DNA of 64,000 bases, taken from positions 9,858,001-9,922,000 of the forward strand of contig OZ024747.1 of assembly GCA_964016885.1 (NCBI GenBank), written 5' to 3'. Under the pieces are notes generated by a model. That model searched no databases, was not told the DNA's origin, and saw only the letters and a list, made by a program, of their open reading frames with translations. The position numbers and the translations under genes are program-made. Each line of letters begins with the position of its first letter. The first letter of the stretch is position 1. This stretch comes from Eledone cirrhosa. Lineage: Eukaryota. This document shows, piece after piece, positions 52,304 to 62,520 of the stretch.

Positions 52304-52444
52304 GTGTGGTAAGGAACCAGATATACCATAACTCACCAGAGTACTCAATACTTAGGGTAGTAGAGTGGGTAGTAGGAAAATGCCCAGTAATGTCCAGAAA
52401 TAGCCATCAAAACGGCTTGAGCTCTGCCGTCGGGGTCTTGAACA

Positions 52445-56657: not shown

Positions 56658-56987
56658 GACAGAACACTAGACACCAAAGAGCCTGAAAAACAACAACAAC
56701 CACAAATCTCCATAAGAAAAAACATTAAGACGAAGAGATACATTAATCAGTTGTTTTTTTCTGAATTACATATCTACGCACATGTATGTATGTATGTATG
56801 TATGTATGTATGTATGTGACATTTTTTAAATGCAAGGTATTGCTGGCCACAGGCAAGTCCCTAGCAGGACTAAAAAGCTACATTCATGATGCTCATACTT
56901 AAGTATCAAACGATGGCATATTATTCGAAAACAAGTTGCAGCCATCATGTGTGTATGTATATAATATAATAACAATATGACCCTCCC

Positions 56988-57058
56988 TATTTTATCTGAT
57001 GAGAACGCAAATATCATCCCATGATGATATTTGTTTTTGAAATGCGCATAATAAAATA
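56988..57058 (+). ncRNA. Type I hammerhead ribozyme, family H4
   Basis: TATTTTAT-CTGATGA-gaacgCAAATATCATC ccat GATGATATTTG ttttt-GAAAT gcgc ATA-ATAAAATA: 8-bp stem I, 11-bp upper stem II, palindromic stem III ATGCGCAT, AUA triplet. Confidence 0.85.
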
Positions 57059-57088
57059 CATGGAACTCTTTTAACCATCTTTTGATCT

Positions 57089-57134
<46 letters not shown>

Positions 57135-57170
57135 ATTTATGTATGTATATGTGTTTGAATGCACGAATAC

Positions 57171-57220
<50 letters not shown>

Positions 57221-57224
<4 letters not shown>

Positions 57225-57412
57225 AAAAATGATTAAAAAAATGGTTTGAAAAGCCCACCTGGTATATACATAAAAGATCTTTTTGTGACATGTACAAAAA
57301 TTGTTAAAAATTGATGTCGTCAGTTTTTCATGTCAATTTCTGTACCTTTTATAAAAATCCTTTATATATATATCAGGTGGGCTTTTCAAACCCTTTTTTT
57401 ATCATTTTCTTT
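57221..57412. repeat. Imperfect inverted repeat (foldback/MITE-like)
   Basis: AAAGAAAAATGAT...GGTTTGAAAAGCCCACCTG pairs with CAGGTGGGCTTTTCAAACC...ATCATTTTCTTT; arms about 80 bp. Confidence 0.8.
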
Positions 57413-57579
57413 AAATAATGTGATCTGTATAGGGCGTTGTCTAACGTTTTAACTATATATATAGAAGTGAAAACTATATATATATATATATAGAAGTGAA
57501 ACTCAACCCAAACCAAACAGTGAGTGTGTTCTGTTATTATTTCTGGCAATATTATAACAATATGACCCTCCCCAAGTAT

Positions 57580-57610
<31 letters not shown>

Positions 57611-57612
<2 letters not shown>

Positions 57613-57778
57613 CGAAGGAAGTGTGGTAAGGAACCAGGTGGACCATCATGCACCAGAGTACTACATACTTAGGGTAGTAGAGTGGGTAATATGAAAATGT
57701 TCAAGACCCCGACGGCAGAGCTCAAGCCATTTCGATGACTATTTCTGGACTAAAAAAAAGTCGAGTCTTGAACATTTC
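57611..57778 (-). mobile_element. Family H3 element
   Basis: On the minus strand: a short inverted arm, then GTCCAGAAATAGTCATCGAAATGGCTTGAGCTCTGCCGTCGGGGTC, then the tail. Confidence 0.8.
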
Positions 57779-58113
57779 CCTATACATACATACATACATA
57801 CATACATACATACATACATACATACATACATAGATACATACATATGTGTATGTGTGTAGGTATATAATTCAGAAAAAAAACAAGATTAATCCAGTGTGAT
57901 TTAAGGTGAAAAACACACACACAAACATATAAGAAAAACCCATGAAAATGTGATTTATACAATATTGGCCTTGGTTAGCTAACTTCTAAGTCCATCTCCC
58001 ACATTTTAGGGTGTAAATATGTAGGATTATATCTTCATATATATTACAGTAATGGTACTGATATACAGGCTGGTTTCATTGTTGTCAAAGGAAATATAGT
58101 TATACATATGTTC

Positions 58114-58156
<43 letters not shown>

Positions 58157-58259
58157 AATATATATGAATATATATTCCTATACATATGTCTATATATTAA
58201 GCATGGAAAAGCAGTCTTAAAAATGATGATGATGATATATATATATATATATGATGATG

Positions 58260-58291
<32 letters not shown>

Positions 58292-58295
<4 letters not shown>

Positions 58296-58482
58296 AACGA
58301 GTAGGACCCCGACGGCTGAGCTCAAGCCGTTTCGACGGCTAATTCTGGACTGAATTAGCCATCGAAACAGCTTGAGCTCAGCCGTCGGGGTCCTACTCGT
58401 TCCTATTACCCACTCTACTACCCTAAGTATTGAGTACTTTGGTGCGTTATGGTCCACCTGGTTCCTTACCACATTTCCTTCG

Positions 58483-58485
<3 letters not shown>
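58292..58485 (+). mobile_element. Family H3 element with a ~54-bp near-perfect hairpin
   Basis: TAGGAACGAGTAGGACCCCGACGGCTGAGCTCAAGCCGTTTCGACGGCTAATTC-tggact-GAATTAGCCATCGAAACAGCTTGAGCTCAGCCGTCGGGGTCCTACTCGTTCCTA, then the tail; flanked by (TA)n. Confidence 0.85.
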
Positions 58486-58527
<42 letters not shown>

Positions 58528-58689
58528 GAGAAATAGAGAGAGGGAGAAACATGTATGTGTGTATATATGTATATATATATGTGTGTGTGTATGTATGTAT
58601 GTGTGTGCATGTCTATGTATGTATGTGGTTATGACCATACATATATATGTGTTTAAATTTATATCTTTACATTTATATATACATGGGTG

Positions 58690-58830
58690 TATATATACAT
58701 GGGTGTATATATACGGGTGTATACATATATACGGGTGTATACATATATACGGGTGTATACATATATACAGGTGTATACATATATACGGGTGTATACATAT
58801 ATACAGGTGTATACATATATACGGGTGTAT
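58690..58830. repeat. 18-bp minisatellite
   Basis: Unit GGGTGTATACATATATAC. Confidence 0.93.
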
Positions 58831-59106
58831 GCAAATGTTGTAGACACATGTCATATGTCCATATGTGCATTGCAGCATCACCAAGTTTATCAGCATTTCT
58901 TTTAGGTTACTAATGCCATGATGATGATGGTGATGGTGGTGGTGAAGGTGGTGGTGATGATGCTGATGATGACGATGATGGTGATGATGATGATGGTGGT
59001 GGTGATACTACTAGCATCGGCATCATCCCTCTCATTGTCACCTCTACATTATCATCAACCAACATCACCATCATCATCACCATAATCATTTTCCAACAAT
59101 TGAATA

Positions 59107-59164
<58 letters not shown>

Positions 59165-59225
59165 ATAATAATGAAATATATATTAATTCAAAATATTAAC
59201 AAAATAGATATTGTGATCAAGTATG

Positions 59226-59288
59226 TTTTATTATACATATTTCAGAGGTACTGAGTTAACTTCAACAGTACGTCCTCATCAGATAAAA
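59226..59288 (-). ncRNA. Type I hammerhead ribozyme, family H4
   Basis: Minus strand TTTTAT-CTGATGA-GGAc GTACTG ttgaagttaact CAGTAC cTCT-GAAAT atgt ATA-ATAAAA. Confidence 0.82.
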
Positions 59289-59557
59289 TAAGATGATGCA
59301 TGACATACCCTGACATAGTAGATGGTTAAGATTCAGTCATGGTAGTGAGTAATATATGACAAAACTCAATATTTATATACCTTAATATTGAAAACATAAG
59401 AAAAACATATAATACATACAATAGAGAGGGTGTTAATATTTTGAATTAATATTAATAACTCTTGAAAACCAATTCTGTTGAGTGCTTCCAATCTATTGTA
59501 AAACTCATTCTTTGATTTATTCATTGAACCTTGTTTAACCTTTAAATATATATATAT

Positions 59558-59905
59558 GGAGGCACATGGCTTAGTGGTTAGAGCATTAGTCTTGCAATCG
59601 AAAGGTTGTGAGTTCAATTCTCAGACCGGGTGATGTGTTGTTTCCTTGAACAAGACACTTTATTTCACATTGCTCCAGTTTACTCAGCTGTAGAAATGAG
59701 ATGATAGGGACTGGGGTCCCTATCATTCCACTGCAAAGTGGTTGTGGAGGTGCCACGGCAAAAAAAGCACCCAGCACTCACTGTAAATGAGGTTGGTGTT
59801 AGGAAGGGCATCCAGCTGTAGAAATCAAGCCAGCATCAGTTCCCGTCCCACCCTTGCAAGCAGGGAAAAAGCGGACGTAAAATGAAATGATGATGATGAT
59901 GATGA
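59558..59905 (+). mobile_element. SINE family A, copy 7
   Basis: Near-identical to the other A copies. Confidence 0.9.
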
Positions 59906-60274
59906 TATATATTATTTATTTATGTTCATACACAGAACAAAAGCACTACCTCTGGTTTCAATGCCCAATATTGACCATATTTCCAGATTGTAAGAAGAAT
60001 CTAAATTGTGAGCTAACCTTGAAACCTTAGGTAGAACATCTGTTCCACGAATAAACATAGATAAATTTCTATTTATTTACCACGAGGGCACAAAAGAAGG
60101 GGACAAATACACAGTGGGGGAGTTTACATAAATCGAGTAAAGAAAAAGGAATAACAATAAACATAGATAAATATTCTAATATGATGATGATGATGATGAT
60201 GATATATCTCACCCTTGCTTGAGCCTGGTTTCCTTTTTCCTTTTAGCACCTACAGAAATGTTCTACATATATAT

Positions 60275-60420
60275 AGGAAAAGGTTCAGGACCCCGACGGC
60301 AGAGCTCAAGCCGTTTCGATGGCTATTTCTGGACCTACTAATTACCCACTCTACTACCCAAAGTATCGAATACTCTGGTGCATTATGGTCCACCTGGTTC
60401 TTTACCAGACATCCTTCGTT
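60275..60420 (+). mobile_element. Family H3 element
   Basis: Inverted half-hammerhead joined directly to the TTACCCACTCTACTACCC tail. Confidence 0.8.
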
Positions 60421-60460
<40 letters not shown>

Positions 60461-60462
<2 letters not shown>

Positions 60463-61068
60463 TGGCTGCCAACTCGTTTTCGAGTACGGCCACTACTTTA
60501 TATCCATGTAGGAGAACCCCTACCGAAGCGCTGAACGAGTGTGACTTTTTAGTCCAGCCAGCGACTTGAAAACTCTGGTACAAACACTACACTTGTGACA
60601 ATTATTGACACATAGTGCTGGGCCCATGGTACCATGTGAGGACAAGTGCAGAGAGATCTCCAGATATAAAGCAATGCCTGTGCCGTGAAGCTTTTATAGT
60701 GAGCAAAGGCACTGCACAAAGCCAGTCCCACTCTCTTAACCAAGATGATATTTACCAAAAAGAAGAACAAGTCAACATCATTGGATACCATCAGGGTTGC
60801 AGGTGTTATATCAGAGTTTTCCTTCTCCTAGAATTCTGCCTTGACAAAGGCTAAGGGGTCATCTCTCCCGGTGATTTTGGATGGCCATTGACTCTTAAGA
60901 GCTCCTTTGCCCTTTGACAGGTTTTGTTTTTAGTCCTGCAGGATGTCCAAAGTCACCCTCCTCACCAAGAAACCTTGGTGGGGTTGCCAGTTTAGTCGCC
61001 AACGACCCGACCATGAGACAGGTTGTACTGGGATACATGTTACCAGTAGCACCAACTGGTGACCTGAC
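60461..61068. mobile_element. Probable retroelement fragment between (TA)n tracts (unclassified)
   Basis: GC-richer complex island bounded by (TA)n. GAGTTTTCCTTCTCCTAG resembles LINE UTR sequence from memory only; no recognisable ORF. Confidence 0.3.
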
Positions 61069-61415
61069 ATATATATATATACATATATATATATATACAC
61101 ATATATATACATATATATATATATATACACATATATATACATATATATATATACACATATATATACATATATATACACATATATATATATATATACATAT
61201 ATATACACATATATATACATATATATTTATATACACATATATATACATATATATTTATATACACATATATATACATATATATATATATATACACATATAT
61301 ATACATATATATCTATATACACATGTATATATATAGATATATATATACATATATATCTATATACACATATATATATATATATATATAGATATATATATAC
61401 ATATATATCTATATA

Positions 61416-61449
<34 letters not shown>

Positions 61450-62308
61450 TATACATACATATATTAAAAATACACCCTGTTGATCATGTATACATTTATG
61501 TATAAATACATTTACGTAATACCCTGAACCAACTAGAAAGTCTTCATTGTTTTGTCTTTTACTAGATGGCTGCACGTTTATATCTATACATGTTTGTGTG
61601 TGTGTGTGTGCTTGTTAATGTTATTGCTACGTAATCAGAACTACTGACCTCTCAGACAGACTAGGGGCTCATATGATGCTTCTATCCATTTTTACACAAG
61701 AGAGATTGTCATGTCTCTAACATAGCTGAAGAATCCCCCTCAACCCTTTGTTTGGCAACTGTTCTACAGCTTAATAGACCTTCCTATCACCAACTACTTT
61801 ACAGCATATGCTAGGTACATTTATCAAAAGAGATCAACGACACACTAGAGAGGTTGTCATGCCCTTGACACAACTAAAGTGTTCTCTCGACCCTAGACTT
61901 CTTGATATATACACATACCAATCACCACAATCATCATCATCATCATATGTCCATTTTTCTATACTAGCATTGGTTGGATGTGTCCTCCTAGATGGGCTGG
62001 AAGTGACATCTTGCTTTCACACCTTCCAGCTTTGGCATCATTTCTACAGCTGGATGTCTTTCCTGTCACTAACTACTTTACAAAGTGTACTGCATACATT
62101 TTACCCACACCTGGGAAGTTGTCATGTCCTTGATTCAACTGAAAAGTCCTCTCAAATATATATATATATATAAGTAGAAGGGGTATTTAATTTGTTGGAA
62201 GTTCGACAAATATAAATGTTTATAACTGATTTAGAGCACTCAACAAGTTACTGGAGTAAATATTCAATGATATTAAATAAATGGAAACTATATTTATAAA
62301 ACCATATT

Positions 62309-62372
62309 TATTTTATTATATATATTTCAAGGATACCAAGACAACATTGGTACGCTTTCATCAGATAAAATA
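62309..62372 (-). ncRNA. Type I hammerhead ribozyme, family H4
   Basis: Minus strand TATTTTAT-CTGATGA-AAGc GTACCAA tgttgtc TTGGTAT cCTT-GAAAT atat ATA-ATAAAATA. Confidence 0.8.
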
Positions 62373-62456
62373 CAGAGTTTGTTTTATAAATAGAGACATA
62401 CCCATGAAAATCATACCTTATCGGTTGGAAATTCACTATTTATAAAACAAACTTTG

Positions 62457-62520
62457 TATTTTATCTGATGAAAGCATACCAATGTTGTCTTGGTACCCTT
62501 GAAATATATATAATAAAATA
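62457..62520 (+). ncRNA. Type I hammerhead ribozyme, family H4
   Basis: TATTTTAT-CTGATGA-AAGc aTACCAA tgttgtc TTGGTAc cCTT-GAAAT atat ATA-ATAAAATA. Confidence 0.8.

Follow-up and report, generated by a model that had tools for sequence, protein, structure and literature searches.

Hammerhead motifs in a 64-kb window of the Eledone cirrhosa genome mark truncated ends of Penelope-like elements whose active parents likely cleave as dimers

The stretch of Eledone cirrhosa DNA analysed here (64,000 nucleotides of contig OZ024747.1, assembly GCA_964016885.1, positions 9,858,001 to 9,922,000 of the forward strand; hereafter the window) carries a small group of hammerhead ribozyme motifs. A descriptor of the type I hammerhead, run on the whole window, found exactly four of them, all within positions 56988 to 62520 and distributed over three loci:

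56988-57058, plus strand: type I hammerhead motif of locus 1 (descriptor); stem III ATGCGCAT, predicted cut after 57050
59226-59288, minus strand: type I hammerhead motif of locus 2 (descriptor); stem III ATATGTAT, predicted cut after 59232
62309-62372, minus strand: type I hammerhead motif of locus 3, minus arm (descriptor); stem III ATATATAT, predicted cut after 62317
62457-62520, plus strand: type I hammerhead motif of locus 3, plus arm (descriptor); stem III ATATATAT, predicted cut after 62512

The motifs have the core CUGANGA / GAAA / UH and three stems, of which stem I is open, and in all four the predicted cleavage triplet, after which the RNA would be cut, is AUA. The original prediction, made from the letters of the window, had placed the four motifs at these coordinates and the cuts after 57050, 59232 and 62512, leaving out the one after 62317; the descriptor agrees with it, and the stem II arms and stem III octamers that it quoted are present in the sequence. 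Rfam found no hammerhead in the whole window at the gathering score, and none was among the 150 matches listed for 55-64 kb at E ≤ 10; this is a matter of library thresholds and no structural criterion. Since stem I consists of A and T alone, as do two of the stem III octamers, one may ask if the motifs are chance matches in AT-rich DNA. The probability of this is practically negligible: any descriptor match at all was obtained in 1 of 200 block-shuffled windows, and a relaxed motif pattern with 80,017 matches in the genome has none when it is reversed. These two controls refute the explanation by chance.

To what the motifs belong becomes apparent from other genomic stretches (designated by L numbers; 20 were chosen for their neighbouring motifs and 14 are extended stretches for families F1 and F2). 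Each locus matches the 3′ end of a Penelope-like element (PLE), a retroelement encoding a reverse transcriptase (RT) and an endonuclease (EN), and at locus 3 the match is to the pseudo-long terminal repeats (pLTRs) of full-length copies:

56982-57095 (end approximate), plus strand: locus 1, 5′-truncated 3′-end piece belonging to PLE family F1, reaching the short 3′ end of this family in (TA)n; 99% identical to the 3′ end of L153
59180-59432 (ends approximate), minus strand: locus 2, main arm, 5′-truncated 3′-end piece belonging to PLE family F2 and having the short 3′ end; 91-92% identical to L147 and L152 at their 3′ ends
59431-59530 (end approximate), plus strand: locus 2, inverted partner with the long 3′ tail, beginning downstream of the hammerhead; 95% identical to L147 5312-5438
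62187-62437 (low end approximate), minus strand: locus 3, minus arm, end of PLE family F3 with hammerhead and long tail; 98-99% identical to the pLTRs of full-length L141 and L142
62433-62566, plus strand: locus 3, plus arm, inverted partner, 5′-truncated and having the short 3′ end; about 140 bp of it can pair with the minus arm

In L153, the stretch encoding RT and EN ends about 0.8 kb upstream of the 3′ end that locus 1 matches. Stem I of the locus 2 copy has 6 bp, versus 8 bp in family F2. Loci 2 and 3 each possess an inverted 5′-truncated partner, with the tail on one arm only; the two arms of locus 2 share a perfect inverted match of 22 nt, and those of locus 3 are 93-99% identical to the pLTRs of L141 and L142. 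The loci are three independent 5′-truncated insertions of three PLE families and form no local system. Where the original prediction saw a single family of hammerheads (its family H4), there is one clade of PLE families whose RT regions are about 47-67% identical; nor did it name the PLE parent or point out that the copies in the window are dead pieces whose surroundings should prevent folding.

That four motifs lie inside 5.5 kb, and that two of them, the minus-strand ones at loci 2 and 3, are separated by 3.1 kb and match each other in stem III so that on paper a fully paired heteroduplex could form, might suggest something else, namely non-autonomous retrozyme repeats or a cluster adopted by the host to process a local transcript. 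We regard this as highly improbable. Tandem units of 150-450 bp are absent, each locus is a PLE end at 91-99% identity, and inspection by eye of the open reading frames (ORFs) listed for the window reveals no obvious host exon. Furthermore, the strict motif pattern has 35,756 exact matches in the 3.0-Gb genome and the relaxed one 80,017, or about 27 motifs per Mb, so that about 1.7 are expected per 64 kb and three insertions with four motifs are unremarkable. Finally, a transcript of locus 3, from either strand, would form a hairpin of about 140 bp in which the motif is buried (the predicted energy of the 400-nt region is -200 kcal/mol). None of the window copies has a promoter-ORF context and none has a partner of the same family on its own strand. 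The window copies are likely inert; they would have been dead on arrival, and the conservation that they display would have been imposed on their parents.

The parents themselves can be reconstructed from longer copies. A full element consists, in this order, of a hammerhead, an ORF for RT and GIY-YIG, a long 3′ untranslated region (UTR) and a second hammerhead, the two motifs being direct repeats 3.3-3.9 kb apart. For F3, two same-strand motifs separated by 3.45-3.47 kb flank RT-EN remains in L141 and L142, and frameshifted remains lie between same-strand motifs in an F3 relative, L042. In a sister family, open stretches of 738-808 amino acids lie between same-strand motif pairs in L037, L040 and L044, and open stretches of 775-821 amino acids were recorded in sister copies; in L037 the first ATG is about 219 nt past the predicted cut. 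Both pLTRs with their motif were thus seen for F3 and the sister family; for F1 (L153) and F2 (L147, L152) only the 3′ copy was seen, downstream of RT-EN and on the same strand. Among the 14 extended stretches for F1 and F2, 10 gave RT-EN protein matches and 4 gave none. The endonuclease fragment that adjoins an F1 motif in L046 was taken to be an unrelated neighbour and disregarded.

Copies of all three families encode SDKTNN, YRDD, CxCX5C and a GIY-YIG-like motif, and no CCHH motif was seen in the endonuclease when translations were inspected by eye, without alignment to reference PLEs. Pfam recognized GIY-YIG in one of five long ORF proteins (E = 1.5e-4) and found no RT in the five; relatives carry PF00078 or PF01541, and a sequence search of the PDB gave nothing meaningful. 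The only named relative, P0010 of Argonauta, goes under "GATA zinc finger domain-containing protein 14-like"; as it is 37% identical to the PLE ORF and contains SDKT and YRDD, its name looks like a mis-annotation. In aligned pieces of the RT region, F1 and F2 are 47% identical, F2 and F3 51-67% (pieces longer than 30 amino acids), and the 3′ UTRs of the three families barely align. By their predicted products, the parents are PLEs of the EN+ type with a single ORF for RT with GIY-YIG at the C terminus. They likely belong to the Hydra clade, because DKT, CxCX5C, the lack of CCHH and (TA)n targets are among the marks given for that clade by Craig et al. (2021, PMC8557442).

The anatomy of the insertions is in keeping with such parents. 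Copies display (TA)n insertion targets, 5′ truncation, an inverted truncated partner and an optional tail. Beside (TA)n, the copies terminate at either of two distinct 3′ positions, about +50-57 and +140-150 nt past the predicted cut. The short end, running into (TA)n, is at +51 in 6 of 23 F1 copies, at +55 in 18 of 28 F2 copies and at +57 in 8 of 37 F3 copies; the long one, some 90 nt beyond, is at +145-147 in 28 of the 37 F3 copies, a set which the query had enriched for it. Read from the copies, this combination of tail and inversion matches the published PLE pattern and the two internal RT start sites described for PAc, a Poseidon element of Anolis (Frangieh et al. 2024, PMC11167929). The tails of F1, F2 and F3 all keep an ACTC..CAG/..TGTTGAGTGC segment (59470-59490 on the plus strand and 62230-62260 on the minus strand of the window), for which a small hairpin is predicted in F2 and F3; it is a candidate protein-binding or RT-start signal.

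Has the RNA fold been under selection? The original prediction had answered yes, arguing that stem II always pairs while its sequences are unrelated. The second premise does not hold throughout. Stem II begins with three extra base pairs and a C×C or C×U mismatch, followed by the arm quoted in that prediction, and the columns of this base are homologous between loci (GGAC-GTAC at locus 2 versus AAGC-GTAC at locus 3); the C×Y mismatch, at position 4 of the stem, is kept, and only the distal stem and the loop are unrelated. For a broader view, 206 distinct copies were grouped into 23 clusters, of which the 13 with at least two copies were kept, each with one representative, the 10 singletons being dropped before pairs were counted. 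The mismatch is present in 13 of the 13 representatives. Overall, 96.9% of the cells are paired and 9 of 20 pairs have changed on both sides, 7 of 8 in stem II and 2 of 4 in stem III, stem I having wobble changes only. The covariation score was reached by 0 of 500 shuffles, and the number of two-sided pairs taken alone by 20 of 500.

A second line of evidence comes from stem I, the strands of which are reverse complements, so that an A>G change in one of them and a T>C change in its partner represent a single double-stranded mutation with identical surroundings. When the five A>G changes that keep a pair (as G·U) were allowed, the number of genome matches rose from 35,756 to 64,207 (+28,451), whereas admitting their five T>C mirror images, each of which disrupts a pair, brought it to 36,544 only (+788). 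The excess of A>G is absent from the flanks of F2 (3.2 versus 4.4 per 1000) and F3 (1.9 versus 4.2 per 1000); A-to-I RNA editing as its source is therefore unsupported by these flanks. The core provides a third line. Position 7 of a hammerhead is free and U4 is invariant; here, a base other than U occurs at position 7 in 5,168 copies and at position 4 in 276. These comparisons give good support to the view that the RNA fold has been selected in the parent lineages, and to that extent the earlier claim of structural selection is borne out.

In one molecule stem III amounts to two pairs around a 4-nt loop and would cost about +3 kcal/mol to close. Yet the outer letters of this loop covary (A-U, G-C), and the innermost ones, which are adjacent and thus unpairable within one molecule, are UA, UG or CG in all 13 representatives. 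Of the 206 copies, 196 are self-complementary at stem III, and its middle is RYRY in 78,585 of the 80,017 genome matches. An 8-bp duplex between two motifs explains this covariation, as the dimer model, already proposed in the original prediction from the palindromic shape of stem III, requires. The calculated energy of the self-duplex is -10.5 kcal/mol for F1, -2.2 for F2 and -3.2 for F3; the weakness of the last two suggests that help from a protein would likely be needed. Published work on minimal PLE hammerheads points in the same direction: Cervera and De la Pena (PMC4209133) obtained no cleavage with a minimal monomer and low cleavage with dimers, and according to a review Lunse et al. 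reached the same conclusion.

We consider it likely, then, that the motifs are minimal type I hammerheads lying in the pLTRs of three related, probably Hydra-clade, PLE families, and that active parents cleave after AUA as dimers, probably together with the protein of the element. A full or tandem element transcript would hold two motifs, the self-complementary 8-nt stem III segments of which would pair, completing both cores and trimming the RNA. Reverse transcription would start at either of the two internal sites and would mostly use as its template RNA left uncut, or joined again, at the cleavage site. Every counted copy spans that site and so came from such RNA.

One alternative is that a monomer cleaves, its 2-bp stem III being propped by a protein or by a tertiary contact between stems I and II. 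The C×Y mismatch conserved in 13 of 13 representatives and, in F3, a potential helix in the distal part of stem I could be parts of such a contact, and cleavage of PAc is protein-assisted (PMC11167929). Nevertheless, this is quite improbable, given the unfavourable closure of stem III in a monomer and the complementarity of its innermost letters through UA, UG and CG, for which a monomer loop has no need.

Several observations weigh against cleaving dimers and the evidence assembled for them. The genome counts are of copies, or related sequences, and not of independent events; the A>G excess stems from a few subfamilies; the flank control for F1 is small (12 copies, 3 versus 2 changes); and stem I lacks any two-sided change among the representatives. 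The stem III duplexes of F2 and F3 are weak (-2.2 and -3.2 kcal/mol), RNAalifold favours a misfolded structure in which stem I takes up part of stem III by pairing, G10.1-C11.1 is found in only 2 of 148 copies, and the Hydra-clade placement is derived from motifs rather than from a tree. No pile-up of 5′ ends was seen at the cut: in F3-type copies with a base other than A just before it, about 4 of 30 sampled from 229 began there, versus about 7 of 30, sampled from 358, at a control position (+7), in a test that was read by eye and detects a junction only if the base flanking it is unlike that of the element. Mutations of the PAc ribozyme did not impair insertion in vitro (PMC11167929).

Some of these points would suit another possibility, in which the parents are the same and the fold is kept mainly as a structure for binding or positioning RT-EN, cleavage in vivo being negligible. 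The lack of a 5′-end pile-up, the presence of the cut site in every counted copy, the weak stem III duplexes, a stem I sequence that is nearly frozen, and, for PAc, an insertion independent of cleavage with no RNA-seq ends reported at the cut site (PMC11167929) are all what one would expect. The pattern of constraint is, however, that of a catalyst: U4 is fixed, N7 is free, and the core is otherwise invariant across families having about 50% RT identity. We therefore judge a mainly binding or positioning role to be unlikely and favour dimeric cleavage in the parents.

These motifs can be compared with several known systems. With published minimal PLE hammerheads they share the CUGANGA/GAAA core, the type I layout, a long helix II and a tiny palindromic helix III, and also the location in pLTRs about 3 kb apart, close pairs on opposite strands, a majority of solitary truncated copies and predicted cleavage as dimers. 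The usual G10.1-C11.1 pair of such hammerheads and their extra base between 9 and 10.1 do not characterize the motifs here (G-C in 2 of 148 copies), but these are typical, not universal, features, and G10.1-C11.1 is also missing in several Hydra-clade motifs published by Craig et al. (2021, PMC8557442). Like the PLEs of that clade, the parents have a C-terminal GIY-YIG, DKT in place of DKG, a CxCX5C linker, no CCHH seen, (TA)n targets, a hammerhead near the 3′ end and often a U just before GAAA. They differ in stem III, which in the compared portion of File S2 of PMC8557442 is AC..GT (GUH) and mostly 9 nt long whereas here it is an 8-nt AT..AT with AUA; in the tail (about 90 nt versus 30-40 nt); and in the distance between motifs, 3.3-3.9 kb versus elements generally shorter than 3 kb, a difference that is descriptive and not diagnostic.

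The kind of element is already known, for a Hydra-clade PLE with a hammerhead has been published for an octopus; the hammerhead of this element, Hydra-1_Obim of Octopus bimaculoides (PMC8557442), is different in sequence from the motifs described here, and two motif strings of our families were not found in the supplement of that article. A search of the literature on hammerheads in octopus and cephalopods found no paper on these PLE families, which supplements may list. PAc (PMC11167929) likewise has two discrete 3′ ends downstream of its hammerhead, AT-rich targets and copies derived from uncut RNA, and its hammerhead cleaves only with its protein; unlike here, it is of a different clade and its hammerhead overlaps the start codon. 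Non-LTR retrozymes (PMC7229834) also have type I hammerheads with a weak helix III and reach high copy numbers in animals, but they are short tandem non-coding units, whereas the motifs here are non-tandem ends of coding elements. The axolotl, with about 120,000 retrozyme hammerheads, has more copies than the present set.

A few further observations concern the surroundings. Just upstream of locus 1, 56960-56987 repeats part of another dispersed repeat (57478-57579), and the bases upstream of this locus share CCTCCC with the element, which suggests a microhomology junction. Copies of a tRNA-derived short interspersed element are present at 59560-59850 and eight other sites; two were scored as tRNA by Rfam, and one directly adjoins the locus 2 tail. 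A separate (TA)n-flanked repeat (57660-57780, 58295-58475, 60285-60420, 52355-52430) has on one strand a hammerhead-like half (GAAAC, a 5-bp stem with a palindromic loop, GUC), with no CUGANGA nearby; its 58.3-kb copy is an inverted pair. The output of a repeat finder on the window was dominated by microsatellites. Elsewhere in the genome there are other hammerhead families (L106, L129, L041, L037, L150, L058, L142), one of which resembles published Hydra-clade motifs in its 9-nt ACCACTGGT stem III and another of which combines a stem I GCAGT with the same ATATATAT stem III. Many divergent inverted pairs lie 100-400 bp apart (e.g. L014, L050, L081); if transcribed, they would give long double-stranded RNA, a possible substrate for editing or small RNAs.

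Features of the motifs that deserve attention are their AUA triplet, a C×Y mismatch that is fixed and a stem I that is frozen. One may speculate that they constitute a distinct, AUA-cleaving variant of the dimeric hammerhead, in which the frozen U-rich/A-rich stem I and the invariant C×Y would form a contact, either tertiary in the RNA or with the RT-endonuclease of the element, by which cleavage would be turned on in the ribonucleoprotein alone; given some 80,000 copies and stem III palindromes in common, motifs of different families could then pair in trans and cut host transcripts. We hold this extension to be doubtful. What this genome adds in any case is a very large, young and multi-family set of motifs, and a strong comparative case for selection on the core, on the stems and on an intermolecular stem III alike. 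Because some copies have long open frames, these very families could serve to test both the dimer model and that of assistance by the protein.

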